Positions 1 through 55,493 of a DNA stretch of 64,000 nt are shown here, in pieces (position 1 is the stretch's first letter; each line of letters begins with the position of its first letter). Made by a program: the position numbers and the translations under genes. The notes below the pieces were generated by a model that ran no database searches, was not told the origin of the DNA, and worked only from the letters and a program-made list of their open reading frames with translations. Source of the DNA: Patescibacteria group bacterium (lineage in GTDB: Bacteria > Patescibacteriota > Patescibacteriia > 2-02-FULL-49-11); contig JBAZQN010000003.1 in NCBI GenBank assembly GCA_041645165.1, positions 28,198 through 92,197 of the forward strand, in the 5' to 3' direction.

Positions 1-194
1 AAGTTCCGTCTGAATGTCTGCTTCTGACAACACAAGTCCGGGCGGGCAGCCATCAATGACCACGCCCACCCCGCCCCCGTGCGACTCGCCGAAGGTAGTA
101 ATGCGAAATAATTGTCCAAAACTATTACCAGGCATATGCACTGAAGATACAAGTTACAAGAGACAAACACCAAACAATTTCCAAGATACAATAA

Positions 195-1067
195 TCAATT
201 TGGGATTTTGAGTTTTGGGTATTGGTGATTATTTGTTACTTGTTTCTTGGTTATTTCGTTCAATGTCATCTTCATAACTTTAACAGGCGCATCACAACCA
301 GTAAATAATGTAAATGATAATATTGCCGTTTCTAAAAGCATTTCCGTACCAGGAATAACGAAACAACCTGCCTCTCTTGCCAATTTAGTCAAAGGCGTGC
401 TTTTGGCTGAATATACAATATCATACACCACTAATCCTTTCCGCAATAATTCCTTGCGTACGGGCGATCCTTGAACGCCATGCGGTAGGCCTATTGAGGT
501 CGCATTCACCAGAATATCGGTGGCAGCAATGAATGACGATAAATCATCAAGCGATCCCGCCGCATGCGCGCCAAATTCGCGGGCAAGCGCTTGAGCTTTA
601 TCTGCGGTGCGATTGAGAATAGACACGTAAGCATCAGCCTGCAAAAGCGCATAAACGATCGCCCGCGCAGCCCCTCCCGCGCCAAGCACGACTATGTGTT
701 CTCCTTTCACCTCGCCGATCGCGTGACGAAGCGTCGACATAAATCCCGGCGCATCCGTATTGTATCCCTTAAGCCTTCCTTCCTCGTTCACAATCGTATT
801 CACGGCGCCAATTGAGCGCGCATGATCATCAAGCGCGTCAAGAAAGGGAATCACGGTTTGCTTGTGCGGCACGGTTACATTGAGCCCCCGCACCCCGAGG
901 CTCCGCATGCCTTTGACTGCGGCTTCCACATCCTTCACCGGAAACGCGGCATAGATAAAATCCAAACCTAGCGCCTCAAACGCCGCATTATGGATCACGG
1001 GTGAAAGTGAATGATCTACCGGATCTCCTATGATGCCGCAAACTTTAGTTTTCGCGGTTATGTGCAT
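195..1067 (-). CDS. aroE: shikimate dehydrogenase
   Basis: Translation MHITAKTKVCGIIGDPVDHSLSPVIHNAAFEALGLDFIYAAF matches the AroE N-terminal substrate-binding motif; start at internal Met assumed (ORF extends to 1115). Confidence 0.85.
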   Translation of the reverse strand: MHITAKTKVCGIIGDPVDHSLSPVIHNAAFEALGLDFIYAAFPVKDVEAAVKGMRSLGVRGLNVTVPHKQTVIPFLDALDDHARSIGAVNTIVNEEGRLKGYNTDAPGFMSTLRHAIGEVKGEHIVVLGAGGAARAIVYALLQADAYVSILNRTADKAQALAREFGAHAAGSLDDLSSFIAATDILVNATSIGLPHGVQGSPVRKELLRKGLVVYDIVYSAKSTPLTKLAREAGCFVIPGTEMLLETAILSFTLFTGCDAPVKVMKMTLNEITKKQVTNNHQYPKLKIPN

Positions 1068-1584
1068 ACGACTTATGCTTATCAAACAATATATTGATAT
1101 CCCGAATAATGGCATGCGGAGCCTTGCCGCTTACATCGACCACCGCATCAGCCGCAGCGCGATACTGGGCTTCCCGTTCCTTCCATGTGCGCAGCATATC
1201 CTCTTCAAATGTTTCCGCATTGGTTAAATACGGGCGCTCCCCTTTCTCTCCCTGAAGGCGCTCCATAAGGCGCTCAACCGGCGCGTATAATAAAACCAAG
1301 AAGCCATTGATTTTCAGCCGCGTAACGCTTTCGTTGTTCATCACCACCCCACCGCCAGTCGCGATAACCGCCTTCTCGTCTCCTGCGACTTGAACAATCA
1401 CCTCAGCTTCGTGCCGCCGAAACGCATCCCAGCCCTCTTCGTTCACAAAATCCTCCAAGGAAACGCCTATGCGCTTCTCTATCAAGCTATCAGTATCCAA
1501 AAATGCATAGCCTAAAATATCAGCCAAGAGCTTCCCCACAGTTGATTTCCCGCTTCCCCGCATGCCGATTAATACTATGTTCAT
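1045..1584 (-). CDS. aroK: shikimate kinase
   Basis: MNIVLIGMRGSGKSTVGKLLA Walker A P-loop and size (179 aa) typical of AroK. Confidence 0.85.
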   Translation of the reverse strand: MNIVLIGMRGSGKSTVGKLLADILGYAFLDTDSLIEKRIGVSLEDFVNEEGWDAFRRHEAEVIVQVAGDEKAVIATGGGVVMNNESVTRLKINGFLVLLYAPVERLMERLQGEKGERPYLTNAETFEEDMLRTWKEREAQYRAAADAVVDVSGKAPHAIIRDINILFDKHKSYAHNREN

Positions 1585-1592
1585 ATTCGCAT

Positions 1593-1684
1593 GTCATTCC
1601 CGCGAAGGAGGGAATCTAGACAAAATAAACAAAAAACGATTATTTATTTTTAATTTCTGGATCCCCGATTAAATCGGGGATGAC
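1593..1684. repeat. family-1 TIR-bounded palindromic element (MITE/RPE-like), copy a
   Basis: gtcattcccgcgaagg(a/c)gggaat palindrome + AT-rich aaacaaa..tttgttt core + ggatccccgat..atcggggatgac palindrome; termini gtcattccc/gggatgac are inverted repeats. Same architecture at 9731, 11228, 12929, 48090. Confidence 0.6.
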
Positions 1685-1720
1685 AATGATGCGTGTTTCC
1701 CCAACGGGAAACCCGAATGA

Positions 1721-2980
1721 CTAGGCGTGTTTGCCAATGAGCATCCCGAGCGCTTCCCAAAACCCCGGATACGATTTGCTCACCACTTCCGCGTCCTGTA
1801 TCACCGTCTCCCCATCTGCCGCAAGCCCGGCAACCGCAAATGCCATTGCCATCCTATGGTCGCCGTGCGGATCAATCACTGCGCCTTTCAACTTTCCTCC
1901 GTGTATTTTTAACGAATCACCGTTCACCTCCGCGCGTATGCCCATCTTGGCAAGTTCTTCCGCAGGCGCGGCAAGGCGATCGCTCTCCTTCCCGCGCAGA
2001 TGGCCAATGTGGGTGATCACGCTCATACCCGGCGCAACCGCGGCAAGCACCGCAAGGGTAGGCACGAGATCAGGAACGTCGCAGCCGTCCACAGAAAATG
2101 GTTTTACTGATTTTGCGCCGCGCACCACCACTGCATTACGCTCATACTTTACTTCACATCCTACGCTGCGCAGAATGTCCAGTACTTTCCTATCCCCTTG
2201 CACAGATTCAGGCGCAAGTCCCAAAACCTTGACTTCGCCGCGAGTGACTGCGGCTGCGGCAAACCAATACTGTGCCGAAGAATAATCCCCTTCTATGGCA
2301 TACCTCCGTGCACGATACGATTGCCCCGGCTCAACCGTGAATTGATTGCCTTTCTGTTCTACCGCCACGCCAAGCTCTTTCAAAAGCGCGATCGTCAAAT
2401 CAATATACGGCCGTGAGTATATCGGCTCTTCCACTGCAATAGTCATTCCTTGCGGTAAGAAAGGTGCGATCATGAGCAGCGCAGATACAAATTGCGAACT
2501 GACATTTCCCGGCAGCCTCACCTTGCCGCCTTGCAATGCGCCTCCCCGTACCGTGATCCTCTTCGGCTCTTGGGTCACTTCTGCCCCCAACGTTTGAAGC
2601 GCATCATACAGTGGCTGCAAGGGGCGCTCTAACAATCGCACACCGCCGGTAATGATTGTTTCGCCTGGCGCCAGCGCTGCTAACGCGAGCGCAAATCGCA
2701 AGGTGGTGCCGGAAAGGCCGCATTCGAGGGGCCTTGAAGGAATACATAATGTCCCACCTGTGCCTTGCACTACCAGCTTTAATTCTTCCTGCTTTATTGA
2801 CGCGCCGAAACCCCTGCACGCGTCCATAGTTGCTTCCGTGTCATCCGCGTACAATATATTAGTTAACACAGATTCTCCTTTTGCGAGCGTTGCGAGCACT
2901 ATTGCGCGGTGCGTAATGCTCTTGGAGGGAGGCGTGACCACGACTCCTTCTATCTTTCCTGGAATTACAGTGACTTGCAT
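1721..2980 (-). CDS. aroA: 3-phosphoshikimate 1-carboxyvinyltransferase (EPSP synthase)
   Basis: KSITHRAIVLATLAKG...CGLSGTTLRFALALAAL motifs of class II EPSPS; start at MQVTVIPGK assumed (ORF to 3013). Confidence 0.88.
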   Translation of the reverse strand: MQVTVIPGKIEGVVVTPPSKSITHRAIVLATLAKGESVLTNILYADDTEATMDACRGFGASIKQEELKLVVQGTGGTLCIPSRPLECGLSGTTLRFALALAALAPGETIITGGVRLLERPLQPLYDALQTLGAEVTQEPKRITVRGGALQGGKVRLPGNVSSQFVSALLMIAPFLPQGMTIAVEEPIYSRPYIDLTIALLKELGVAVEQKGNQFTVEPGQSYRARRYAIEGDYSSAQYWFAAAAVTRGEVKVLGLAPESVQGDRKVLDILRSVGCEVKYERNAVVVRGAKSVKPFSVDGCDVPDLVPTLAVLAAVAPGMSVITHIGHLRGKESDRLAAPAEELAKMGIRAEVNGDSLKIHGGKLKGAVIDPHGDHRMAMAFAVAGLAADGETVIQDAEVVSKSYPGFWEALGMLIGKHA

Positions 2981-3087
2981 AATAAGCTTTATATTAGCGA
3001 GGATTGCTCTCACACAAACCCTCCGCAGACTCCGCCGGCATGGTGTCCGACGTAACGTCGGACCGGCGGAGGCGAGGCGGAGTGCGG

Positions 3088-3582
3088 TCAGCCGCTGGGC
3101 TGACCGACACGTGTTTGTGCTGAGGCAAGCCTCGCGACCAGATTCTCTAACCCTACCACGTAACTCTGCTCTTTTAACCCCATGACCCTTTCCGCCGCAA
3201 TATCGGCAATCACGGAAATCCTCCGGAACGGCTCCCGGTGCTCAATGTTAGACAAATGCACCTCCACGAGCGGAAGACCGGCGTCAACAAGCGCGTCCCT
3301 CAAGGCATAGCTGTAATGGGTGAGCGCCCCGGGATTGATGAGAATTCCATGCGCACCTCCCGCCTGTGCTTGAATAAAATCAATGAGCGCTCCTTCATGG
3401 TTTGACTGGAAAAACACGAGTTCTATCACCTCATGCCCCTCGCTTAATCTCCCTGCCTTCGCGCGCAACATATCCTCAATCGCACCCAACGTGAGCGAAC
3501 CGTACTGTACGGGGTCGCGTCTCCCCAGCATATTTAAATTTGGCCCGTTGATTACTAAAATACGCATAAGTTCATTGTTCAT
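3088..3582 (-). CDS. aroQ: 3-dehydroquinate dehydratase type II
   Basis: MRILVINGPNLNMLGRRDP...HLSNIEHREPFRR canonical type II DHQase motifs; 164 aa (start may be the Met at ~3567). Confidence 0.9.
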   Translation of the reverse strand: MNNELMRILVINGPNLNMLGRRDPVQYGSLTLGAIEDMLRAKAGRLSEGHEVIELVFFQSNHEGALIDFIQAQAGGAHGILINPGALTHYSYALRDALVDAGLPLVEVHLSNIEHREPFRRISVIADIAAERVMGLKEQSYVVGLENLVARLASAQTRVGQPSG

Positions 3583-3610
3583 TATTTGTAGCGGACTTGA
3601 ACCCAGAGGC

Positions 3611-3687
3611 GAAGGAATACCAATTTGTCGAGGATTTAGGCGCGAGGGTCGCTAGATCGCGTCCGCAGAAAAATTGTGTATTCCTGA
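3611..3687. repeat. family-2 TIR-bounded element, copy A
   Basis: gaaggaataccaattt(g/t)tcgaggatttaggcg...cgcgtccgcagaaaaattgtgtattcctga; imperfect ~17-bp terminal inverted repeats (aggaataccaattttt / aaaattgtgtattcct). Copies also at 5601-5676 and 50407-50504. Confidence 0.6.
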
Positions 3688-3717
3688 CCAAGAAACAACC
3701 TGGGTGAGCAAATACCA

Positions 3718-4821
3718 TTATTCACTGTTGAACATCCCTCGCAATGCTTCATGTACAATCTTACGCGGCACCTTGACCCCCGCCCTCGCCTTCCCAATCT
3801 TCTCCAACAGCACCCACCTTACGCTGCCACCTTGCGCCTTTTTATCATGCTGAAGAATATTTATCAGTCTTGCGATGTTCGTACGCGCGGGCAATCTCGT
3901 GGGTAGATTATAATGCGCCAATAACGATTCTACACGCGCGCAATCCTGCGTATTGAAACCTAATAATTCATTGCTTATCCTTACCGCCGCAACCATGCCG
4001 ATGGCGATTGCTTTGCCGTGCGGGAGTAAAAAATTGCTCATACTCTCCAGTGCGTGTCCCACGGTATGCCCGAAATTTAATAGTACCCTCTCGCCTTTTC
4101 GGTCGTTCGGGTCCCGCGCAACCGCCGCCGCCTTCGCCCGTACGCAAAATCCCACCACTTCGTCCCAGGGCATGCGATTGAAGGCACACTCCTCCAATCG
4201 CGCCGTGAATGTGCGGCTGCCTATCAATCCGTATTTAATTACTTCCGCCATGCCGTTAATAAGCTCATCTTGAGGGAGCGTCCTTAAAAACGTGGTGTCG
4301 CATACCACTGCCTTCGGCTGGTGAAACGTGCCAATCACATTTTTTATGCCCCGAAAGTCAACGCCGGTTTTGCCGCCAATCCCGCTGTCCACTTGTGCTA
4401 AAAGCGTTGTTGGCACCTCAATATAATCTATGCCTCGCAAATAAACGGACGCCACAAAACCCGTGAGGTCGCCTACCACGCCGCCGCCCAGCGCAACGAG
4501 GATGCCGTAACGATCAACTTTTTTCTGCTGCAGTATGCGCAAGCATCGCTCGGCAATGCGCAGTTCTTTCGAACGTTCTCCCGGCCTCAGCACAATGGTA
4601 TGCACGGGCACGCGCCCTTCGCGCAAGGTTCTCAAAACCCTTCCGTGCAGGCGCGCAACCGTGCGATCGGTAATGAGAACCACAGAGGTACGGGCATTGC
4701 CCCGTGCGAACTGAGGCAAAACGGCAAGCGCCCGATTTCCCGCGATGAGCGCACACGTGTTTTTCGCTGTTACGCGATAATGTATACGGATCATACCCCG
4801 TATATCAATATCCAACGCCAA
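3718..4821 (-). CDS. aroB: 3-dehydroquinate synthase
   Basis: GGGVVGDLTGFVASVYLRGIDYIEVPTTLLAQVDSGIGGKTGVDF NAD/metal-binding motifs of DHQS. Confidence 0.9.
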   Translation of the reverse strand: MALDIDIRGMIRIHYRVTAKNTCALIAGNRALAVLPQFARGNARTSVVLITDRTVARLHGRVLRTLREGRVPVHTIVLRPGERSKELRIAERCLRILQQKKVDRYGILVALGGGVVGDLTGFVASVYLRGIDYIEVPTTLLAQVDSGIGGKTGVDFRGIKNVIGTFHQPKAVVCDTTFLRTLPQDELINGMAEVIKYGLIGSRTFTARLEECAFNRMPWDEVVGFCVRAKAAAVARDPNDRKGERVLLNFGHTVGHALESMSNFLLPHGKAIAIGMVAAVRISNELLGFNTQDCARVESLLAHYNLPTRLPARTNIARLINILQHDKKAQGGSVRWVLLEKIGKARAGVKVPRKIVHEALRGMFNSE

Positions 4822-5029
4822 ACGTGGTTGGCATTGAAGTAAGCTTTAACATGAAAGCGACCTTGGTGTATTGAATCATAGTAAAATTTGTAGATAACGT
4901 TTGGCGATCAGTGAGGGAGGCTATGTAAAAATCTGCAATACGGTCAATCCTCATCCAGTAGTACTCCATCTATATTCTGCTTAAAGATTCCCGCCTCCCT
5001 CTTGGATGTTGTATTTCGGGGCATATGGT

Positions 5030-5317
5030 TCAGCGCTTTTGTGTCTGGCGCGATGATGCAATGATAATACCCATAAGCGTACGCACCTTTGACGCCGGGA
5101 GGCCCAGGGACCTGCCAAACTTCACGGCGCATGCGATTACCCGTTGTTCCCTTTCCCTGTCTTTTAAAGAAAGAGACTGGTCTAGTTTTAGTTTGCCGAT
5201 TTCACGCGCAACCTTCAAGCGCCTGGACCACAATCGCAATAAGGCGCGGTCAAGAGCGTCAATCTGTTTCCTTAAATGAGTGAGTGATTTAGAGTTCATA
5301 GGCTGCTCCTCGCTCAT
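5030..5317 (-). CDS. chorismate mutase (AroQ class)
   Basis: LRKQIDALDRALLRLWSRRLKVAREIGKLK matches CM type 2 helical motif; ~90 aa; immediately downstream of pheA. Confidence 0.7.
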   Translation of the reverse strand: MSEEQPMNSKSLTHLRKQIDALDRALLRLWSRRLKVAREIGKLKLDQSLSLKDREREQRVIACAVKFGRSLGLPASKVRTLMGIIIASSRQTQKR

Positions 5318-6310
5318 ACGTCCCCAACACCGTGAGGGTAACCGCTTCGTGCCTCAAGGCAGAGAGCGCCCGCGTGAGCGCTTCAGGCGAGAAGGTGTGT
5401 TCAAAATCCACATAGAACAAATATTCCCACGGCTTGCCGAGCAAAGGGCGCGATTCGACTTTGGTAAGATTCATGCCCCTGCCTGCGCACTGCACGAGGA
5501 AACGTGAGAGGCTCCCCGCGACGTGCGGAAGCGTGAGCAGGAGCGATACTTTATTTCCTTTCACCGCGGATAGTAAGTACTCACCGGCTTCAACGCGATG
5601 CGAAGGAATGCCAATTTTTCGAGGATTTAGGCGTTCAAGCTGCTTGGTCGCGTCCGCAGAAAAATTGTGCATTCTGAAGCGGGATGACTTTGGATGAGCA
5701 GTTATCGCAGATATCGGCTTTTTTGCAGGTTTTATAATAGCGCCGAAGCGGGTATAATTCTCGCGATCGGTCTCAATATGGTCGGCAACTACCGACAAGC
5801 CGTACAATGACGCCGCCACCCTGCTCGCGATTGCCGCCTCATCCTGGCGCCTACGGAGCGCCACCTCCCGCGCCGCGCCCGCGGTATCGCGGAATGATAT
5901 AACTTCTATCCAGGGATGGCGCTTAAGAAATTCCTCGCATTGGTCAAGCGCTTGAGGATGCGAGTAGACGCGCCGGATTTGGCGGATTCTTTTCGCGCCG
6001 CCCGCGTGCGCAGAATTTGCAAGCAGGTTATGGGATATGCGCAAAAATATTTCTCCGTCCAAGACAAGCGAGTGGCGTGCAAGCAAATCATAAATGCGAT
6101 GGATGGTGCCGGCGACCGAATTCTCCAAAGGCACGATACCCTGCAGAGCCTTGCCTTTTGCCACTGCCTTGAAAACCTCGTCAAATGAGGGACAAGGTAT
6201 CATCGCCGCGTGTATCCCAAAATATTTCTGTGCCGCGATTTCGCTGTACGCGCCATGTTCTCCTTGGAAAGCGATTTTATTCCGTTTAGGTAATGAATTT
6301 TTTGTCATAA
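5289..6310 (-). CDS. pheA: prephenate dehydratase with C-terminal ACT domain
   Basis: NKIAFQGEHGAYSEIAAQKYFG PDT N-terminus and VSLLLTLPHVAGSLSRFLVQCAGRGMNLTKVESRP ACT motif; start at MTKNSLPKRNKIAF assumed (ORF open to 6476). Linker contains in-frame family-2 repeat. Confidence 0.85.
5601..5676. repeat. family-2 TIR-bounded element, copy B, inside pheA coding sequence (in frame)
   Basis: gaaggaatgccaatttttcgaggatttaggcg...cgcgtccgcagaaaaattgtgcattctga; translated on minus strand as [34 protein letters not shown] within PheA linker. Confidence 0.65.
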
Positions 6311-6480
6311 TTTCTTTCCTACCTTTCTCTCTTCTTAGAGCGAGTGTTGGCTGTAACGAAAAGCGTCTCGGAGGTTTTGCGGGCATGGGTCCCGCGAAGC
6401 GGGAGAGCAAAACCGAGAGCCGAGCGGTAATTTCCTCGCTGGGGAAATTGACCGCGTCTTTTCGTGGCGGCCACACTCGC

Positions 6481-7401
6481 TTACGTCGCCACCGTTCTTC
6501 CTATCGCGCCCGCAATGGTATTTATTTCTCGCATCAGCTGGTTAAGCGCCTCAATGGATATCGCTTGCTCTGCGTCTGAAATGGATTTATCCGGATCTAT
6601 GTGGCACTCGATAAGCAGCCCGTCTGCCCCCGCGGCAATGGCCGCTCTACTCATCGCGGGCACCAAATCGCGCCTGCCAGTACCGTGTGAAGGGTCCACG
6701 ATGATGGGCAAGTGGGTTTCATTTTGCAAATAAGGCACCGCATTCAGGTCAAGCGTAAACCGCAGCTCAGTGACATGCGTGCGGATGCCGCGTTCGCAGA
6801 GCATCACATTTGCATTGCCTCCGGTGAGAATATATTCTGCGGCGAGCAAAAATTCCTTGTAGGTGGAATGCATGCCGCGCTTTAAGAGCACGGGATGTTT
6901 TGTGCGCCCGACCTCTCGCAAAAGTGTATAATTCTGCATGTTCCGCGCGCCGATTTGGAGTATGTCCGCATATTCCACAATAAGATCCACATCCCTGGGG
7001 TCCATCACTTCCGTGATGGAGCGCAATCCAGTAGAACGCGCCGCTTTCTGGAGAAGCTGGAGCCCTCTCTTCCCCAACCCTTGGAAATCATACGGGCCGG
7101 TGCGGGGCTTAAATGCCCCACCGCGCAGCACCGTGCCGCCCGCCTCTTTTACCGCTTTCGCAATCAGCGTAATCTGCTCTTCGTTTTCCACCGAACACGG
7201 CCCTGCCATTATCACCACCTGCGGCCCTCCCACCAGCAGCCCTTGCACGTCAATCACTGTCTTCTCATCTCCGGAAGTATGCGCAAGCCGGTATGGTTTG
7301 AGAGGAGACGACTCTGCAGGCAATATTCCGTTGTCACTCTTAGGTGATTCTAACACTGTTTTCACTCTCTTAATGACTTTTTCTTTCATGATAGTTGGCA
7401 T
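6481..7401 (-). CDS. 3-deoxy-7-phosphoheptulonate (DAHP) synthase, class I-beta / KDO8PS-like
   Basis: [14 protein letters not shown]...[17 protein letters not shown]...[20 protein letters not shown] typical of Bacillus/Thermotoga-type DAHP synthase; 306 aa. Confidence 0.85.
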
Positions 7402-8907: not shown

Positions 8908-9735
8908 TCAATTTATCCCTTCGCCTGCGTCCACCAACGTCCTCAAATATTTCTTTACCGCATCAATCCCTTGCCCCTGCGGCACTTTATTAAACACATC
9001 CAGCACCGCGCTGCCGACGATGGCGACATCAGCCCCCGCCTCTTTGAGTGTCTTGATATGCTCATGTGTTGAAACGCCAAATCCCACCGCGATGGACACA
9101 TCCTTATGCGCCCGAATTCTTTGAAGATGGTGCGCAAGCTCCTTATGGAGCGACGCGCGCGCGCCGGTCGTTCCTTTCTGCCCGATGAAATAGAGAAACT
9201 GGTTTGGCTTATCCAGTACTTTCTCAACTCGCTCGTCCGTGCTCACGGTGGAAAGAAACCGCATCGCTACTAAACCAGAACGCGCTGCGTGCTCCAAAAA
9301 ATGATCATGCGCTTCTTCATCAATCGGAATATCAGGAACGATGAGCCCGCTCACCCCCACCTCTGCCGCATCTCTACAAAATTGCTCGACGCCGTAATGA
9401 AAGACAAGATTAAAATACGTCATAAATAGGAGAGGTATTTTACAGTGTGCCCCAACCAAATTCTGCGCCGCGGCAAACGCATCCTTCACCTTGAATCCTC
9501 TCTTAAGCGAGACTTCATTTGCCTTCATTATCGTCGGCCCGTCAGCCAAGGGATCTGAAAAAGGAATCTGCAGCTCGATAAAATCAACGCCCGCCCCTGC
9601 CATCGCATGCACAAGCCCAATGGAATCCTGCAGCGACGGATAGCCCAAGACAATATGGGCCATGATCCCTAATCTTTTCTCCTCTTTTATTTTATTGAGT
9701 CGTGTAATAATCTTGTTCATATTCACGTGTGTCAT
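8908..9735 (-). CDS. trpA: tryptophan synthase alpha chain
   Basis: GIMAHIVLGYPSLQDSIGLVHAMAGAGVDFIELQIPFSDPLADGPTIMKA canonical TrpA motifs (start may be the Met at 9720). Confidence 0.9.
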   Translation of the reverse strand: MTHVNMNKIITRLNKIKEEKRLGIMAHIVLGYPSLQDSIGLVHAMAGAGVDFIELQIPFSDPLADGPTIMKANEVSLKRGFKVKDAFAAAQNLVGAHCKIPLLFMTYFNLVFHYGVEQFCRDAAEVGVSGLIVPDIPIDEEAHDHFLEHAARSGLVAMRFLSTVSTDERVEKVLDKPNQFLYFIGQKGTTGARASLHKELAHHLQRIRAHKDVSIAVGFGVSTHEHIKTLKEAGADVAIVGSAVLDVFNKVPQGQGIDAVKKYLRTLVDAGEGIN

Positions 9736-9833
9736 TCCCGCGAAGGCGGGAATCTAGAAAAAAAACAAACATAAAAATCGATCGTTTTCTTTTTGTTTTT
9801 TAGTTCTGGATCCCGTATCAAGTACGGGATGAC
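9731..9833. repeat. family-1 TIR-bounded palindromic element, copy b
   Basis: gtcattcccgcgaaggcgggaatctag...aaacaaacataaaaatcgatcgttttctttttgtttttt...ctggatcccgtatcaagtacgggatgac; right arm contains trpB last codons and TGA stop. Confidence 0.65.
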
Positions 9834-11119
9834 GGTAATGTTGACCTTCTCTTTAAGTATTCCTTCCAAATCTGCCCGCCGAATATATCCCCGAGAATAA
9901 ACAAATCTTTATCACCGCGTCCCGACATATTCACGACGATGATTTTTTCTTTGGATAAGGTGGGTGCAAGTTTCACGACATGCGCGAATGCGTGTGCCGA
10001 TTCAAGCGCGGCAAAGAGCCCCTCCATGCGCGCCAGAGCTTGAAATGCACTGAGCGCTTCCTCGTCGGTCGCCGACACATACTGCACTCTTCCCTTCTGG
10101 TAAAGCAGCCCATGCTCCGGCCCGATCCCCGCATAATCAAGGCCCGCAGAAATGCTATGCGTGTTTTGTATTTGCCCGTCTTCGTTCTGCAGAAAATAAG
10201 ACTTATATCCTTCAACAACCCCAAGCTTGGGATCGCGGGCTAGGCGCGCCGCGTGCTTCCCTGTTGATGTCACTCCCTCGCCCCCTGCCTCCACGCCAAT
10301 AAGACGCACGGAAGGCTCTTCCAAAAAGGTGTTGAAAATGCCTATGGCATTACTGCCGCCGCCCACGCACGCGATCACATAATCAGGGAGTTCTCTGCCT
10401 GTTTGTGCCTTTAACTGCTCCCGCACCTCAAGCCCCACAATATTCTGAAAATCGCGCACCAGAGAAGGGTAAGGGTGCGGGCCTAAAGCGCTTCCCAACA
10501 GGTAATAGCTCTCATCCACGTTCGCGATCCAGTCTTGGATGGCAGCCGTGACTGCGTCTTTTAAGCGTTTAGTGCCATGGGCAACCGGCACTACCTCAGC
10601 GCCCAATTGCTCCATCCAGAATACGTTCGGCCGCTGCCGTTCATAATCCACCTCGCCCATGTAGACGGTGCATGCAAATCCAAACTTCGCCGCGACCGTT
10701 GCGGCCGCCAGCCCATGCTGTCCCGCGCCTGTTTCTGCGATTAGGCGTTTTTTGCCCATGCGGCGAGCAAGGAGCGCCTGCCCCAGACAATGGTTCATCT
10801 TGTGCGCGCCGGTATGGTTTAATCCTTCATTTTTAATAAAAATATTCGCGCCGCCTAAGTGCGCGCTCAAATTTCGCGCAGAGGTAAGCGGCGTGGGGCG
10901 GCCGGAATAATTCTGATAGAGATCCATAAGCTCGCTCAAGAAAGTAGGATCATTTTTCGCGGTTGCATAGGCGCGCTCAAGCGCGAGTAACGCCGGCATC
11001 AAATTTTCCGGCACATACCTACCACCCAGCTCGCCAAAATGCCCCTGCGCGTCTGCATCGTACGGTGTGGAGAAAAAAATGTTCTTCACCCCGTTAGAAA
11101 TTTGTTTTGCATCTTGCAT
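9818..11119 (-). CDS. trpB: tryptophan synthase beta chain
   Basis: HFGELGGRYVPENLMPAL...HTGAHKMNHCLGQALLA...GGGSNAIGIF PLP-fold TrpB motifs; 433 aa. Confidence 0.9.
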   Translation of the reverse strand: MQDAKQISNGVKNIFFSTPYDADAQGHFGELGGRYVPENLMPALLALERAYATAKNDPTFLSELMDLYQNYSGRPTPLTSARNLSAHLGGANIFIKNEGLNHTGAHKMNHCLGQALLARRMGKKRLIAETGAGQHGLAAATVAAKFGFACTVYMGEVDYERQRPNVFWMEQLGAEVVPVAHGTKRLKDAVTAAIQDWIANVDESYYLLGSALGPHPYPSLVRDFQNIVGLEVREQLKAQTGRELPDYVIACVGGGSNAIGIFNTFLEEPSVRLIGVEAGGEGVTSTGKHAARLARDPKLGVVEGYKSYFLQNEDGQIQNTHSISAGLDYAGIGPEHGLLYQKGRVQYVSATDEEALSAFQALARMEGLFAALESAHAFAHVVKLAPTLSKEKIIVVNMSGRGDKDLFILGDIFGGQIWKEYLKRRSTLPSSRT

Positions 11120-11227: not shown

Positions 11228-11392
11228 CGTCGTTCCCGCCCCGTATCACGGTACGGGGTAAACCATGGCCTCGCGCAGGCGGGGCTCTTGCGGGAATCCA
11301 GACGCCGTCCTCGACCGAGATCGGGAAAAACCAAAAGAAAATCGATTTTTGCTTGTTTTTTATGTCTGGATTCCAAATCAGGTCTGGAATGA
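11228..11392. repeat. family-1 element, copy c (with nested extra hairpin module)
   Basis: gtcgttcccgcc[ccgtatcacggtacggggtaaaccatggcctcgcgcaggcgggg]ctcttgcgggaatc ... ctggattccaaatcaggtctggaatgac; same nested module as copy d. Confidence 0.6.
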
Positions 11393-11437
11393 CAATCGAA
11401 ATTGGGTTGGCAATTTATTATAACCATTACGCTATTT

Positions 11438-12928: not shown

Positions 12929-13074
12929 GTCATTCCCGCCCCGTATGCCGCTACGGGGTAAACCATGGCCTCGCGAGGCGGGGCTCCGGCGGGAATCCAG
13001 ATAAATAACAAACATGAATTACCGATCGTTTTCTTTTTGTTTTATCTAGATCCCGTATCTCGGTACGGGATGAC
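12929..13074. repeat. family-1 element, copy d (with nested hairpin module)
   Basis: gtcattcccgcc[ccgtatgccgctacggggtaaaccatggcctcgcgaggcgggg]ctccggcgggaatccag...aacaaacatgaattaccgatcgttttctttttgtttt...gatcccgtatctcggtacgggatgac. Confidence 0.65.
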
Positions 13075-29120: not shown

Positions 29121-29656
29121 AGGACTATATAAAACTGACCAAGAATATAGAAATTGACTAGGTAGAATAGCACTATGGCTAATCCCTCCATAACTACTCT
29201 TATATTCTCCCACTTTCTGTCTTGATTGACAATATGTTTGGTTATACACCAAGAGCCGCAGGAAACGACTTTTACGATTCCTCCGCTGCAATTTACTCTC
29301 TTTCAGGATGGATCATTGATATTTTTAACTTAAGGCCATGACGCGGCAGAGGAAGGCATCGCAGATAATCTCGAAAAAGAGACTCCCCACCAGGAAATGC
29401 GAGGAAGGTAAGGCTTACCATGCCGTCATAGCCTGGCTCCGGTGAAAATGAAATGGCGGGAGGCTGATCGGGAGGAAGCGTCTGCGCCGTACTGGGAATA
29501 AAAAACACCCTCCGAAAAGAGTGTTCTTGTTTGATTACCAACCTGCTGTGAGGTTTTTGAGACGGAAACGGGCCTGCCGCGCCGGAGTCCAGAATCTCTG
29601 GACGCAGGTGGGTCTCTTCCTCCAGAGGCGGACAAGCGAACCGCGCAATAATTTGA

Positions 29657-29710
29657 CTCCGAGGGCGAGATTCGAATCCCAAACCAATCCGCCGCAATTT
29701 CTCTGGCTCC
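29657..29710. repeat. left copy of 54-bp direct repeat (putative attL of genomic island)
   Basis: ctccgagggcgagattcgaatcccaaaccaatccgccgcaatttctctggctcc; identical (1 mismatch) to 48205-48258 which overlaps the tRNA-Asn 3' end. Confidence 0.6.
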
Positions 29711-48089: not shown

Positions 48090-48164
48090 CCCCCGATCAG
48101 GTGAGGACAGCGTCTGGATCCCCGATCAAGTCGGGGATGACAGGTGGAGAGCGCGGGAATGACA
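48090..48164. repeat. family-1 element, partial/rearranged copy e
   Basis: ctggatccccgatcaagtcggggatgac…gcgcgggaatgaca. Confidence 0.5.
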
Positions 48165-48167
48165 AAA

Positions 48168-48207
48168 CAAAAACACCCCGTAAAAGGGGTGTTAAAAATC
48201 AAAACTC
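48168..48207. repeat. conserved hairpin module (copy 2)
   Basis: caaaaacaccccgtaaaaggggtgttaaaaatcaaaactc; compare 23741-23778. Confidence 0.5.
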
Positions 48208-48258
48208 CAAGGGCGAGATTCGAATCCCAAACCAATCCGCCGCAATTTCTCTGGCTCC
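48205..48258. repeat. right copy of 54-bp direct repeat (putative attR), overlapping last 7 nt of tRNA-Asn
   Basis: ctccaagggcgagattcgaatcccaaaccaatccgccgcaatttctctggctcc. Confidence 0.6.
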
Positions 48259-48326
48259 GAGACCGGGATTCGAACCCGGAACCAACTGCTTAACAGGCAG
48301 CTGCTCTACCATTGAGCTATCTCGGA
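48252..48326 (-). tRNA. tRNA-Asn (anticodon GTT), CCA encoded
   Basis: Minus-strand TCCGAGA-TA-GCTC-AATGGTA-GAGC-A-GCTGC-CTGTTAA-GCAGT-TGGTT-CCGGG-TTCGAAT-CCCGG-TCTCGGA-G-CCA folds as cloverleaf with 7-bp acceptor, GTT anticodon. Confidence 0.85.
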
Positions 48327-49131: not shown

Positions 49132-50358
49132 TTAGTAATCCTTCAATTTTGCCATACCGGCGTGCGCCTCGATTTTTTCCAAAGCCTTCGCTTCGATCTG
49201 CCGAATGCGCTCCCTTGTCACGCCGAACTCCTGCCCCACTTCTTCCAGAGTGTGCGCGATGCCGTCCACCAGGCCGAAGCGCATTTCCAGGATCTTCTGT
49301 TCGCGCGGCGAGAGCCCTGAAATAATTTGCCGCACGTGGTCGCGCAGGAGCTGCAGGGCGGCCGCCTGGGAAGGGGTGACGGTTTTGACATCCTCTATGA
49401 AATCGCCGAGCTTTGATTCATCCTCCCCTTCATCCCCCACCGAGGTCTCGAGCGACACGGTATCCTGCGATATCTGGATGATGTGGCGGATTTTGGCGAC
49501 CTCTTCGCCCATTTCCGCGGCGATCTCTTCAGGGAGCGGCTCTCTTCCAAGATCCTGGATGAGCTGCCGCTCCACTTGCTGGAACTTATTTATAGTCTCC
49601 ACCATGTGCACGGGAATACGGATCGTGCGCGACTGGTCTGCCAAGGCCCTGGTGATAGCCTGCCGGATCCACCACGTGGCATAGGTGGAGAATTTATAGC
49701 CCTTGCGGTAATCAAATTTTTCAACCGCCCTAAAAAGCCCGATATTCCCCTCCTGAATAAGATCAAGAAGTGTTAAGCCCCCGCGCCCCACGAATTTTTT
49801 CGCAATGGATACCACGAGCCGAAGATTCGCTTCGACGAGCCGCTTGGTCGCTTCCCGTTCGCCCCGCTCTTTCCTCTTGGCAAGGTTCAGTTCCTCTTCC
49901 TGGACAAGGAGCGGCACTTTCCCTATCTCCCGAAGGTACATCTGGATCGAATCAGAAGAAATGTCGGAAAGGTCAAGCCGCTTCTGGTCGGCAGAGAGCC
50001 CTACTTCGCGCAGGATCTTTTGGCGCTCCTCAGGCTTCGCGAGTATCCCTAAATCCCTTTCAATCACCTGGATGCCTGCATGTTCAAGCTGGTCAATCGT
50101 CTCCTCAAATAGGTCAAGGTATTCCTCAAGCCGGGGAAAGGCGTACAGGAGCTCCATTTCAGTCACGAAACCGCGGGACCGCGCTTTCATGACCACCTGC
50201 GCTATGTCCGGTTTAAGATCTACGCGCGGCGCCTCTGCCGCAGCGCGCGGCTTGCGGACCGGCACATTCCTTTGCATCCGTGCACGGAACGCGCGGTGCT
50301 TGGGCCTGCGGATGAGCCTCTTTTGGTGTTTCATCTTTGTGCGTGAAGGATGTTTCAT
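49132..50358 (-). CDS. rpoD: RNA polymerase sigma-70 factor
   Basis: Regions 1.2-4 recognisable: [40 protein letters not shown] (region 2), …[45 protein letters not shown] (region 4). Confidence 0.9.
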
Positions 50359-50406
50359 GCGTTGAAGAGAAAAAAATTCTGTAACTACTGACTTAGTCCT
50401 TATAGC

Positions 50407-50504
50407 GAAGGAATACCAATTTTTCGAGGACTTATGCCTGTTTCAGACAGGCATAAGCGTTCAAGCTGCTAAATCGCGTCCGCAGAAAAATTGTGTATTC
50501 CTGA
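50407..50504. repeat. family-2 TIR-bounded element, copy C (with extra 27-bp palindrome)
   Basis: gaaggaataccaatttttcgaggac[ttatgcctgtttcagacaggcataag]cgttcaagctgct…cgcgtccgcagaaaaattgtgtattcctga in the rpoD-dnaG intergenic region. Confidence 0.6.
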
Positions 50505-50708
50505 GCGGGAAAAACCTGTGAGCAGATACAATCTTTAATGCAAAACGCTTCAATGCCGCGGGCTGACGCCCGCCGCAGTGAGTACAAAGGGGTAAACCCC
50601 GTTACCATGGGCTTGAGGTCCATGACATTGGTCGTCATTCCCCTTTTGGGTTGATGTACATTCATCTACGGTCTCAACGACTCTGTAACGCTCTAGTAAC
50701 GGGGTAAA

Positions 50709-52526
50709 TCAAAATTCAAGCTCGGCAAGCGCTTGCGTGAGCACGGTGAATTCCCTGCTCAGCGCGTCAAGCTCGGCAGTGTCCTTAGCTGCCGTTGTAG
50801 GCAAATTTTTTTGTTCGCGCTCCCGGATAATCCGCGAGAGCGCTTCCACACGCTCTTTCAGCACGAGCCGCTTCAGCGACCGTGCCAGATGAGTGATTTC
50901 TTGGAGAAGCTCCGAATCGCTTCTTCCTTGATACTCGAGGTCCCCGCGGGTGGCGAGGATTTGGACGTTTCTGTGAAGCTCTGGTAGAGACGCTTCAATC
51001 GTCGCAATGAGATGTTCGCTGGTGTGGATTCTTGACTCACTGTACCAAGAAGTGAGCATCTTGTAAAGCGCCTGATGCGGCTCCGGCACATACTCATGGG
51101 CAATGATCTGGACCGCATGCGGTATCATGGGAGGCGTAGTGAGCAAAAGCGAAAGCATGCGCTCCGTCAAACTCTGCGCAGGAAGAAAGGGCACTGCTTC
51201 CTTCACGGGCGCCGCGGCGGCGCGCGTGCCCTGCGATGAGGAGACAGCTTTGGCAAGCGCTTCGCGCAATGCCTGTTCTGACACACGCAGTTCTTCAGAC
51301 ATGCGCTTTACATAATGGTCGCGCTCAATCGGGTCCGCGAGCTTGAGAAGGTAAGGAAGCAGTGCGCCGGCAACCGCCTTTTTATCCTGTACGGTATCTC
51401 CAGGATGCTCTAGGCGGGCTTGCGTAAATAAATATTCAAGGATCGGCTGGCTTGCATTAACCGCCCCGATAAACGCTTCCTTGTCTTTCCGCACCACTTC
51501 ATCAGGGTCTTTGCCTTTATTCTTAGGCAATCGGGCTAATTTTACCGTGAAGCCGGCTGCCCAGGCGAGTTCGAGCCCGCGCAGCGCCGCGCCTTTTCCG
51601 CCCGCATCGACATCGAAACACAACACGAGCGTGTCCGTGACGCGCTTGAGAAGGATGAGTTGCAGCTCCTCGAGATTAAATGAAGTTCCTGACGAGGCTA
51701 TGGTATTGCGGATACCCGCCTGCCATAAGGAAGTAACATCCATTTGCCCCTCCACCACCAGCGCAAACCCTTGTGCGCGTATGTCCTGTTTGGCTTTATC
51801 GAGACCGAAAAGTACCGCACGTTTGTGATACAGCAGGGTTTCGGGCGTGTTCACGTACTTGCCCCCTTCCTCCTTATTTTCTTTGAGCTGCCTGCCGGTA
51901 AACCCAACGATGGCGCCATGGTGGTCCCGCAGAGGAAACATAATCCTGTCGCGGAAACGGTCGTAGACACCGCGCTCTCTCCCCGGCAAGGCCATACCCG
52001 CGTTTACCATCTCCTGGTCGCGATATCCTTTCGCGCGCAAAAAGCGCGTGAGCTCTTCCCAACCCTGCGGCGCGTAGCCTAAGAGCCATTCCTCGAGCGT
52101 GTCAGGGATAAGACCGCGTGTTTCTTTTAAATAACGCAGGGCTTCTGCGCCTCGCGCGGTCTGCAGCTGAACCGCAAACCACTGCGCGGACGCGGAAAGG
52201 AGCTCCCTCATCCTCTGCCGCTCACTCTTAAGCTGCGGATCCTCCCGTTTCAATTCAACATTCGCTTTTTTCGCGAGGATCTCCAACGCTTCCGGAAATT
52301 CAATATTCTCGATCTTCTGGATAAACGTAAACATGTCTCCCCCAAGATTACACCCGAAACAATGCCACATCTGCCTTCCCCGGTGCACCATGAATGAAGG
52401 GGTTTTTTCATGATGAAACGGGCACAAACCTTTGAGGTTTGCACCTGCCATCTTCAGCGGCACGTATTCTTGGATAATATCCACGATATCCAGCCGCGAT
52501 TTGATGTCATCGACAGGAGAGAACAT
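50709..52526 (-). CDS. dnaG: DNA primase
   Basis: CPFHHEKTPSFMVHRGRQMWHCFGCNLGGD zinc-binding domain; TOPRIM (…VVEGQMDVTSLWQAG…); upstream of rpoD as in MMS operon. Confidence 0.9.
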   Translation of the reverse strand: MFSPVDDIKSRLDIVDIIQEYVPLKMAGANLKGLCPFHHEKTPSFMVHRGRQMWHCFGCNLGGDMFTFIQKIENIEFPEALEILAKKANVELKREDPQLKSERQRMRELLSASAQWFAVQLQTARGAEALRYLKETRGLIPDTLEEWLLGYAPQGWEELTRFLRAKGYRDQEMVNAGMALPGRERGVYDRFRDRIMFPLRDHHGAIVGFTGRQLKENKEEGGKYVNTPETLLYHKRAVLFGLDKAKQDIRAQGFALVVEGQMDVTSLWQAGIRNTIASSGTSFNLEELQLILLKRVTDTLVLCFDVDAGGKGAALRGLELAWAAGFTVKLARLPKNKGKDPDEVVRKDKEAFIGAVNASQPILEYLFTQARLEHPGDTVQDKKAVAGALLPYLLKLADPIERDHYVKRMSEELRVSEQALREALAKAVSSSQGTRAAAAPVKEAVPFLPAQSLTERMLSLLLTTPPMIPHAVQIIAHEYVPEPHQALYKMLTSWYSESRIHTSEHLIATIEASLPELHRNVQILATRGDLEYQGRSDSELLQEITHLARSLKRLVLKERVEALSRIIREREQKNLPTTAAKDTAELDALSREFTVLTQALAELEF

Positions 52527-52638: not shown

Positions 52639-54177
52639 TTATTCCCACTCGATCGTGCCCGGCGGTTTGCTGGTGAGATCATAAAGGACGCGGTTGACGC
52701 CCTCCACCTCATTGGTAATCCGCGTGGCGAGGCGTGCGAGCACGTCCTCGGGAATACGCGCCCAATCCGCGGTCATCGCATCCTCTGAGGTTACGGCGCG
52801 CACGACGATGGGATGCGCGTACGTACGCTCATCGCCCTGCACGCCCACAGAACGCACCTCCGGCAGAAACGCAGCATAATATTGCCACAATTTTAATTTT
52901 TTTGCGAGCGGGTCTAGCGTTTCGCGCACGATCGCGTCCGCCTGCGCGAGGGTCTTCAGGCGCCCTTCATCCACCGCGCCCACAATCCGCACGGCAAGGC
53001 CGGGACCGGGAAACGGCTGGCGCTCCACCACTGCGCGCGGGAGCCCCAAAATCCTTCCCACCTCCCTGACCTCATCTTTGAAGAGCATGCGCAGCGGTTC
53101 AATAAGTTTCAAATGCATGCGCGCAGGCAGCCCTCCCACGTTGTGGTGCGTTTTGATGGTGCTTGCCGTCCTGCCGCTTCCCGCCATTGCCGATTCGATC
53201 ACGTCAGGATAAAGCGTGCCTTGGACCAAAAAGGCGGGTTTTGATTTCAGCCGTTTTGCCTCTCTCTGGAACACTTCAATAAAAGTCCGTCCTATGATCT
53301 TCCTCTTCTCCTCTGGATCGCTTACCCCTTTTAATTTATGCAAAAATAATTGCGGCACGCGCACCACCTTCAAATCCGCCTTCAGCATGCGCCGCATCGC
53401 CTGCGCCACTTCTTGTTCCTCGCCCAAGCGAAGCAGGCCGTGGTTCACGAACACCGCAATAAGCCGGTGGCCGAGGGCATGGTGCACGAGCGTGGTGGCC
53501 ACCGCCGAGTCCACGCCGCCGGAAAGCGCGGCGATCGCGTATCCCTTGCCCGCCTTTGCTTTAATTTCCTCTATGGCTGACGTCACGAACGACGGCATAG
53601 ACCAATCCGGCGTGAGGCCTGCAATACGGACCAGAAAATTCTCAAGCATTTTTTTTCCAAACTGCGTATGCACGACTTCCGGATGGAATTGCACGCCCCA
53701 TATATTCTTTTCCTTATCCCCCACGAGGGCAAATGGGGAATGTGCAGTCACGCCATATGCGTGAGTGCCTTTGGGGAGCCGCACGACGGCATCGCCATGG
53801 GACATCCATACTCTCAATTGCTGAGGGAGACCGGCAGTGAATGGCGATCCGCGGACAATCTTTACGCTCGCGGGGCCGTATTCTCTCTGCTTCATCCTTA
53901 CCACTTTCCCTCCGGTGAGATAACACGTCAGCTGCTGGCCATAACATATCCCTAAAATGGGAATGCCCAGCGCAAACAATTCTTTCGGCACGCGCGGCGC
54001 TCCCTCTGTATATACTGATGAAGGCCCTCCGGAAAGAATAATCGCGTGTGCCTGCTTGAGCCTCTCAAGCGGCGAGCGATAAGACACCAGCTCCGCGGAA
54101 AATCCCAACTCGCGCACCCTACGGGCGATCAACTGGCTGTACTGCGCGCCAAAATCAATGACAAAAACTTGGGACAT
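52639..54177 (-). CDS. guaA: GMP synthase (glutamine-hydrolysing)
   Basis: N-terminal GATase (…GICYGQQL…) + ATP-PPase SGGVDSAV P-loop + C-terminal dimerisation domain ending …PGTIEWE. Confidence 0.9.
   Translation of the reverse strand: MSQVFVIDFGAQYSQLIARRVRELGFSAELVSYRSPLERLKQAHAIILSGGPSSVYTEGAPRVPKELFALGIPILGICYGQQLTCYLTGGKVVRMKQREYGPASVKIVRGSPFTAGLPQQLRVWMSHGDAVVRLPKGTHAYGVTAHSPFALVGDKEKNIWGVQFHPEVVHTQFGKKMLENFLVRIAGLTPDWSMPSFVTSAIEEIKAKAGKGYAIAALSGGVDSAVATTLVHHALGHRLIAVFVNHGLLRLGEEQEVAQAMRRMLKADLKVVRVPQLFLHKLKGVSDPEEKRKIIGRTFIEVFQREAKRLKSKPAFLVQGTLYPDVIESAMAGSGRTASTIKTHHNVGGLPARMHLKLIEPLRMLFKDEVREVGRILGLPRAVVERQPFPGPGLAVRIVGAVDEGRLKTLAQADAIVRETLDPLAKKLKLWQYYAAFLPEVRSVGVQGDERTYAHPIVVRAVTSEDAMTADWARIPEDVLARLATRITNEVEGVNRVLYDLTSKPPGTIEWE
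54133..54177. repeat. 45-bp direct repeat copy 1 (= authentic 5' end of guaA)
   Basis: ctggctgtactgcgcgccaaaatcaatgacaaaaacttgggacat identical to 55449-55493. Confidence 0.7.
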
Positions 54178-55448: not shown

Positions 55449-55493
55449 CTGGCTGTACTGCGCGCCAAAATCAATGACAAAAACTTGGGACAT
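55449..55493. repeat. 45-bp direct repeat copy 2 (duplicate of guaA start incl. ATG)
   Basis: Same 45 bp; creates a 33-codon uORF MSQVFVIDFGAQYSQLGLYFFDQSHKIHERIIF overlapping the GT start. Confidence 0.7.

Follow-up and report, generated by a model that had tools for sequence, protein, structure and literature searches.

A recently mobile MITE family of Patescibacteria with in-frame copies in pheA and dnaX

Background

Does a palindrome that recurs between aroB and aroQ, inside pheA, and between dnaG and rpoD in one bacterial genome represent mobile DNA, or an RNA structure maintained for its fold? The question is raised by a stretch of 64,000 nucleotides from a Patescibacteria metagenome-assembled genome (contig JBAZQN010000003.1), referred to below as the window. 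Patescibacteria (CPR) have genomes of about 1 Mb, which are usually called streamlined, and no publication on MITEs in this group was found in the literature searched. According to the evidence given below, the three repeats are very probably copies of a non-coding palindromic transposable element (MITE) family from Patescibacteria. The family is new, but selfish DNA of this kind is well known, and no new type of system is involved.

Results

Copies of the repeat in the window

An earlier note on this DNA had quoted three copies at positions 3611–3687, 5601–5676, and 50407–50504, and all of them are present as quoted and can be aligned with one another. The right-hand 21-mer CGCGTCCGCAGAAAAATTGTG has 3 exact occurrences in the window, all on the + strand, with 0.00 expected according to 100 dinucleotide-preserving shuffles, and the left 24-mer occurs 3 times at ≤1 mismatch (0 expected, dinucleotide-preserving shuffles). 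Thus, the repeat is real, and its 3 copies far exceed the chance expectation of 0.00. With a profile of 15 copies, nhmmer reports no fourth one in the window. Both sequence similarity and inverted-repeat pairing reach approximately 25–40 nt past these core intervals on both sides, and the full elements, all in + orientation, occupy positions 3588–3715 (copy A, 128 nt), 5573–5705 (copy B, 133 nt), and 50381–50529 (copy C, 149 nt).

The gene neighbours named previously are confirmed by Pfam for all three copies, and all of these genes are on the − strand. Copy A is located between aroB (3-dehydroquinate synthase, 3718–4821), which lies upstream, and aroQ (type II dehydroquinase, 3088–3582), which lies downstream. 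Copy B is inserted in frame in the linker between the PDT and ACT domains of the prephenate dehydratase gene pheA (5289–6476), the product of which is 100% identical to database protein P0001 (339 aa, with the start at 6308). Copy C is situated between the primase gene dnaG (50709–52526, upstream) and the gene of an rpoD-type sigma-70 factor (49132–50358, downstream), and ends 23 nt upstream of the rpoD start.

The aroQ gene of the window is also present on Logan contig L043 (SRR8449827), whose end lies inside copy A. This is a typical repeat-caused assembly break, and the element disrupts short-read assemblies in this way. As for the genomic surroundings, positions 1–7401 of the window, and likewise L043, contain a complete shikimate/phenylalanine gene cluster (DAHP synthase, pheA, chorismate mutase, aroB, aroQ, aroA, shikimate kinase, shikimate dehydrogenase, and chorismate synthase). 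Patescibacteria are usually described as being without amino-acid biosynthesis.

Other repeats in the window

The window also contains a second, unrelated family of short-hairpin repeats at 1592–1685, 9730–9834, 11229–11394, 12929–13001, and 48113–48142. It comprises 4 copies of TCTGGATCCCCGATTAAATCGGGGATGACA type with 73–100% identity to the reference copy, together with the partner motifs TGTCATTCCCGCGAAGGAGGGAATCTAGA and GTCGTTCCCGCCCCGTATCACGGTACGGGG, and is probably the one that the earlier note listed as its family 1.

Among direct repeats, a 55-nt sequence is found at 29656–29710 and 48204–48258 (98% identical), and the two copies bracket about 18.5 kb. The second copy adjoins the 3′ end of tRNA-Asn (48252–48326, − strand), the sole tRNA gene. 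The bracketed segment includes a stretch of low GC content (0.42–0.44 at 36–44 kb) and encodes a RecQ-like helicase, a type III restriction Res subunit, an N6/N4 DNA methylase, a Schlafen/AlbA_2 protein, and a large LCAT-like hydrolase. The whole resembles an integrated defence island bearing repeats of att type. No integrase is identified within these ~18.5 kb, and a Pfam scan of the low-GC island (29.7–48.2 kb) reports type III restriction-modification and other defence-type genes and no transposase. Finally, a perfect 45-nt direct repeat occurs at 54133–54177 and 55449–55493, 1316 nt apart. Its first copy is the 5′ end of a 512-aa ORF (52639–54177, − strand), which suggests tandem paralogues with identical N-termini.

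Element structure

Each copy is a near-complete palindrome composed of four layers: terminal inverted repeats (approximately GTAACTGCTCACTG / CAGTGAGCAGTTAC), a spacer arm, a strongly conserved inner stem (AGGAATACCAATTTTTC / GAAAAATTGTGTATTCCT), and a variable tip, which sometimes carries an extra hairpin. The element has a length of 128–154 nt (128–149 nt for the window copies), which falls within the range of about 50–500 bp expected of MITEs, and it has no coding capacity of its own. It starts with GTAACTGCTCAC(TG) and ends with (CA)GTGAGCAGTTAC. These ends are mutually inverted and paired in every well-preserved copy, perfectly over the terminal 13 bp in L029 and imperfectly in the window copies. 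The ~17-bp sequences GAAGGAATACCAATTT/AAATTGTGTATTCCT, previously taken for the terminal inverted repeats, are therefore an internal stem, since the real termini GTAACTGCTCAC...GTGAGCAGTTAC lie 22–28 nt further out on each side. Similarly, the motif (g/a)tgagc, which had been described as a common right flank, does occur to the right of each core (3704–3709, 5694–5699, and 50518–50523) but belongs to the right terminal inverted repeat.

In the alignment of all copies with their flanks, the left part of the consensus is GTAACTGCTCACTGaCTTcAAC.CGA. followed by GCGAAGGAATaCCAATTTTTCGAGGA. The middle consists of either TTTAGG or CTTATGCC-loop-GGCATAAG, then CG, and then a variable segment of 13–14 nt that is of GAGGGTCGCTAGG type or TCAAGCTGCTTGG type. 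The right part is TCGCGTCCGCAGAAAAATTGTGyATTCC(T)GA followed by GCGGGAAAGAACCTGAGTGAGCAGTTAC.

The optional hairpin is represented in copy C by CTTATGCCTGT-TTC-ACAGGCATAAG at 50431–50457. This 27-bp palindrome had been interpreted as an acquisition of copy C that points to modular evolution. The word modular is fair, but the hairpin CTTATGCC-loop-GGCATAAG is found in 6 of 16 full copies from three genomes (copy C, L010, L011, L026, L035, and L036), so copy C did not gain the module alone, and the module is old and shared among copies. Its loops vary and its stems stay paired, with a double compensatory change in L035 (CTTAAGCC/GGCTTAAG) and G-U pairs in L026. Presence or absence of the hairpin and the two types of variable segment occur in all four combinations; the family is a mosaic.

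Folding and the RNA alternative

Whole elements fold into a single long end-to-end hairpin with energies of −37 to −55.6 kcal/mol (z = −2.9 to −7.1). The corresponding values are −37 kcal/mol and z = −2.9 for copy A, which folds from end to end, and −55.6 kcal/mol and z = −6.5 for copy C. Both strands fold well, also when only the cores are considered (z = −2.3 to −6.8). Such structures would be expected if the repeat were a structured non-coding or cis-regulatory RNA, such as a leader, an attenuator, or a processing/stability hairpin, conserved for its functional fold. The near-invariance of the inner core in three genomes agrees with this alternative, as do one covarying pair and the optional hairpin that keeps its pairing through double changes. 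Stable folding, however, is trivial for a palindrome, and beyond it the suggestion that the core forms a conserved stable RNA finds no support. Rfam 15 yields no match at the gathering score for the whole window, and at E ≤ 10 it reports only noise for copy C (13–14 bits vs cut-offs of 50–90) and nothing for copy A. Of the 23 pairs that RNAalifold predicts for the core, 22 are without any compensatory change, and the sole covarying one occurs as A-U (8 copies), G-C (5 copies), or A·C (2 copies).

The genomic context adds to this picture. Among 15 mechanically annotated copies, 10 run antisense to their neighbours, always in the same orientation, which could be read in favour of an RNA, but 3 are sense and 2 mixed, so the bias is weak and not a rule. 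The copies stand beside unrelated genes in both orientations, some of them within coding sequence and in frame, and scans of copies A and C for promoter and terminator consensus sequences find nothing within the element. The target-site duplications and empty sites described below also speak for insertion and not for vertical conservation. Overall, the RNA alternative is very unlikely.

Distribution across genomes

An exact scan for the core 18-mer GTCCGCAGAAAAATTGTG was applied to GTDB (one genome per species) and JGI metagenomes. It detects full elements only in Candidatus Uhrbacteria RIFCSPLOWO2_02_FULL_49_11 (3 contigs) and in metagenome Ga0265296 (9 places on 8 long contigs). All other matches are bare, lie in unrelated sequence, and are roughly as numerous as expected by chance (~17 estimated for the genome scan). 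The nhmmer search with the 15-copy profile adds a full copy (L020:2317–2447), whose 18-mer deviates by one mismatch, and a decayed one (L035:6873–6958). Thus, at least 17 distinct copies are known from three genomes, namely the window's MAG, Ga0265296, and the Uhrbacteria genome. That the 18-mer is invariant among the copies retrieved reflects ascertainment; this does not apply to the left core GCGAAGGAATACCAATTTTTCGAGGA, which is nearly invariant.

The decayed copy, which corresponds to L047:8479–8564, has an nhmmer E-value of 1e-6 to 1e-7 and lies in a spacer, 35 nt after the dnaX stop codon. No copy is detected in the relative L045. Since this copy is strongly decayed, the family includes both old and young insertions. 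As for possible vectors, blastn of copy C against plasmid and phage collections returns no match and two exact-pattern scans of viral contigs are empty, giving no sign of a phage or plasmid vector. A tblastn comparison of the window proteins with the Ga0265296 and Uhrbacteria loci fragments, intended to set host against element divergence, reports no orthologous genes.

Target-site duplications

Six copies have a duplication exactly at the ends of the terminal inverted repeats, with a length of 8 bp in five cases and 14 bp in one. In the window, copy A is flanked by CATTATTT (3580–3587) and CATTATTC (3716–3723), and copy B by CGCGGATA (5565–5572) and CGCAGATA (5706–5713), with 7 of 8 positions matching in both pairs. 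The same degree of identity is observed for L028 (ATAAAATG / ATAAAAAG, 7/8), while the duplications are perfect for L026 (TTTTTTAG / TTTTTTAG, 8/8), L018 (CAATTTAA / CAATTTAA, 8/8), and L035 (ATTCTCGTTATGAG on both sides, 14/14). At a fixed boundary, a match of ≥7/8 has a chance probability of about 4e-4 for each copy. Copy C has no clear duplication left (4/8), and several other copies are also without a recognisable one; free scanning of the boundaries yields only 5–6/8, which is not meaningful.

Some insertions touch the ends of adjacent genes. The left duplication of copy A contains the first in-frame ATG of the aroQ ORF, and its right duplication contains the aroB stop codon (3718–3720, − strand). 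Judging by homology to the related contig L044, the true aroQ start is probably the ATG at 3567. At L029:517–524 the terminal GTAA of the element gives, on the opposite strand, the TAA stop of a 567-aa ORF (L029:521–2224, − strand), and this ORF may have had its original 3′ end replaced through the insertion.

Empty sites in relatives

Three empty sites are found in relatives with approximately 92% identical host proteins. Two of them belong to L044, a Logan contig with the same gene order as the window. It encodes P0002 (289 aa), the closest pheA homologue without the insert, which is 92% identical over aligned residues. On the gene strand, the empty pheA site of L044 is ...AAGCCG TTATCCGCC GTGAAAGG..., with one copy of the octamer, and the filled site of the window is ...AAGCCG ATATCTGCG (133-nt element) TATCCGCG GTGAAAGG.... 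Copy A is absent from L044 as well, the aroB–aroQ spacer having 3 nt there vs 135 nt in the window. The third case is the dnaX gene of another Patescibacteria genome (L035), in which a 154-nt element lies between two copies of CTCATAACGAGAAT, whereas L045 (relative P0124, 550 aa, with 92% identical DnaX) has a single CTCATAACGAGAAT and an empty site. The filled dnaX allele is also present in the independent ENA assembly L047 and is thus no assembly artefact. In this way the duplications of copy B and L035 are both checked against empty sites that have a single copy of the duplicated sequence.

The description of the repeats as a MITE-like family is therefore borne out by target-site duplications and by empty sites in relatives. 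The family is genuine and recently mobile in Patescibacteria, and its in-frame insertions resemble those of Rickettsia palindromic elements (RPEs).

The same observations bear on two other routes of mobility. A REP/REPIN-type element, i.e., a REP doublet mobilised by RAYT (an IS200/IS605-like TnpA) via single-stranded hairpin intermediates, would share with the present family inverted arms that form a long hairpin whose tip is less conserved, inner arms that are more conserved than the outer ends, and positions mostly between genes within operons. REPINs and relatives of IS200/IS605, however, are not known to make target-site duplications, and those of 8–14 bp reported here are verified against empty sites. 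In addition, two copies are intragenic, and no RAYT gene is seen in the loci examined, which comprise little sequence. A REPIN origin is hence very unlikely.

The second route is a retro-transposed small element (SINE-like), or insertion at staggered nicks of variable spacing, which could account for duplications of 8 as well as 14 bp, both extremes being checked against empty sites. The element, however, is bounded symmetrically by terminal inverted repeats and lacks a 3′ tail or poly-A, and neither orientation-specific truncation nor a reverse transcriptase is seen. Moreover, variable direct repeats of 7–11 nt have been documented in QMITE2, a MITE from bacteria (PMC5896051), so the spread between 8 and 14 bp alone needs no new mechanism. 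This explanation is extremely unlikely.

Three further candidates were dropped. The attC/integron and intron/IStron readings do not fit the duplications and the in-frame intragenic copies. The same misfit applies to a small-ORF leader starting with GTG/ATG-AGC after the core, and its presumed start codon belongs to the terminal inverted repeat on the right.

In-frame copies in pheA and dnaX

Among the 17 copies, 2 are intragenic. Copy B lies between the PDT (residues 68–249) and ACT (residues 311–375) domains of pheA and, together with one duplication, adds 141 nt, i.e., 47 codons (ISAITAHPKSS...VEAGEYL) without a stop. In dnaX the insert amounts to 168 nt (56 codons), also without a stop, and lies in a low-complexity linker after the AAA+ clamp-loader domains. 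Both copies are read on the same strand and in the same reading frame, antisense to the + orientation of the element, and this frame is the single stop-free one of the six in these two copies. Copies of the GAGGG subtype have a stop even in that frame. Without selection, the right strand, the right frame, and a length divisible by three would coincide twice with a probability of roughly (1/18)^2, which speaks for host genes that continue to be read through and to function, and against removal of the element at the RNA level.

The element peptide (~45 aa) has no homologues among 1.84 billion representative proteins, where the 2 matches obtained are unrelated tandem-repeat proteins, and a profile of it has no match in an index of 5.8 billion proteins. 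Translated copies are thus rare and restricted to the lineage.

Mechanism and parentage

Insertion is of cut-and-paste or copy-in type and duplicates about 8 bp of the target (14 bp once). In the MITE interpretation, a transposase supplied in trans would recognise the ends of the element. After insertion the element would be passive. Copies in operon spacers (aroB–aroQ and dnaG–rpoD) would add a long hairpin to the polycistronic mRNA, and this hairpin may affect mRNA stability or coupling in these units. An intragenic copy would survive only if it landed in the single stop-free strand and frame with the downstream frame kept, and it would then be translated as an extra linker segment of 47–56 residues between domains (in pheA and, in a relative, dnaX).

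As for the source of the transposase, derivation from IS66 is possible, although on balance rather unlikely. The GTAACTG... termini and the mostly 8-bp duplication seem to fit IS66 better than other IS families. The IS66 family has inverted repeats of 20–30 bp starting with GTAAGCG (variants GTAACCG) and 8-bp direct repeats (PMC11946415, PMC12888890), so that termini beginning with GTAA(C/G) and a typical target duplication of 8 bp are common to both. In contrast to the canonical GTAAGCG, the element has GTAACTGCTCAC, its start GTAAC(T)G having just 4–5 nt in common with the IS66 consensus, and its duplication length is non-uniform (8 bp vs one case of 14 bp). No tnpA/B/C genes are found near any copy, and the loci examined contain no IS66 transposase gene (tnpC, DDE_Tnp_IS66). 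Within the window, a search with the terminal inverted repeat consensus for a full-length IS returns the three MITE copies only, at chance level, Pfam reports no transposase domain in the 17 ORFs scanned, and no autonomous element or transposase with matching ends is present.

Conservation is higher in the inner core than at the termini, which holds for the three window copies, where ascertainment plays no part, and for the left core in all copies. In MITEs the termini are usually the best-conserved part, and this reversal hints at an additional constraint. Possible causes are a subterminal transposase-binding site, gene conversion between copies, or an exapted function. A more far-reaching interpretation, which is improbable, would treat the ~50-nt inner core, whose conservation across three Patescibacteria genomes exceeds that of the element's own termini, as a functional module (either a platform that binds a mobilisation machinery other than IS66, or an exapted RNA or peptide module) and the stop-free frame as selected, making the family more than passive junk. 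If true, binding of the core by such a non-IS66 machinery would also explain the 8–14 bp range of the duplications, and the stop-free frame would give the element access to essential genes of ultra-small genomes, a strategy like that of RPEs but evolved independently in CPR.

Discussion

A recently active MITE that is tolerated within translated essential genes (pheA and dnaX) means that selfish DNA is still shaping the genomes and proteins of CPR bacteria, in parallel to the RPEs of Rickettsia. The phenomenon itself, i.e., MITEs and their in-frame insertion, is already well known. In practice, the element can be mistaken for a regulatory RNA, and it inflates gene models, the pheA and dnaX products being 50 and 56 aa longer than their orthologues, respectively. 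Its presence/absence polymorphisms, in turn, provide ready-made strain markers.

Comparison with known palindromic elements

Among known palindromic repeats, the classical bacterial MITEs, namely Correia elements of Neisseria and ERIC sequences of enterobacteria, are also palindromes of 100–150 bp that are located in operon spacers and co-transcribed as long mRNA hairpins. They likewise form subfamilies with internal insertions and deletions, comparable with the optional hairpin of the present family. Correia elements differ in having a TA duplication, IHF sites, and promoter parts, whereas no promoter or terminator consensus is found within copies A and C.

In-frame MITEs are known from RPEs (PMC10969869) and QMITE2 (PMC5896051). 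QMITE2 of Coxiella burnetii belongs to a similar size class (150–190 bp vs 128–154 nt here) and has direct repeats that vary in sequence and length (7–11 nt vs 8–14 here). It is mostly found at gene ends and between genes, with occasional in-frame insertions that add residues or a stop codon (PMC5896051). Its sequence and host, however, are unrelated, and QMITE2 yields a detected sRNA (PMC5896051).

The closest resemblance in behaviour is to RPEs (Ogata et al. 2000, reviewed in PMC10969869). These are also palindromic, approximately 100–150 bp long, and found in a small reduced genome. They too occur both between genes and in frame within unrelated housekeeping genes, adding a conserved extra peptide where the fold tolerates it, and a transposase partner is known for neither family. 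The likeness is one of behaviour only, as RPEs belong to Alphaproteobacteria and the present family to Patescibacteria. No RPE-related match is obtained with Rfam or with BLAST against phages and plasmids, and the family is found only in Patescibacteria/Uhrbacteria genomes. Intragenic copies are also fewer (2 of 17, vs nearly half in some RPE families). Finally, in contrast to RPEs, clear terminal inverted repeats and 8-bp target duplications are visible in the element described here.
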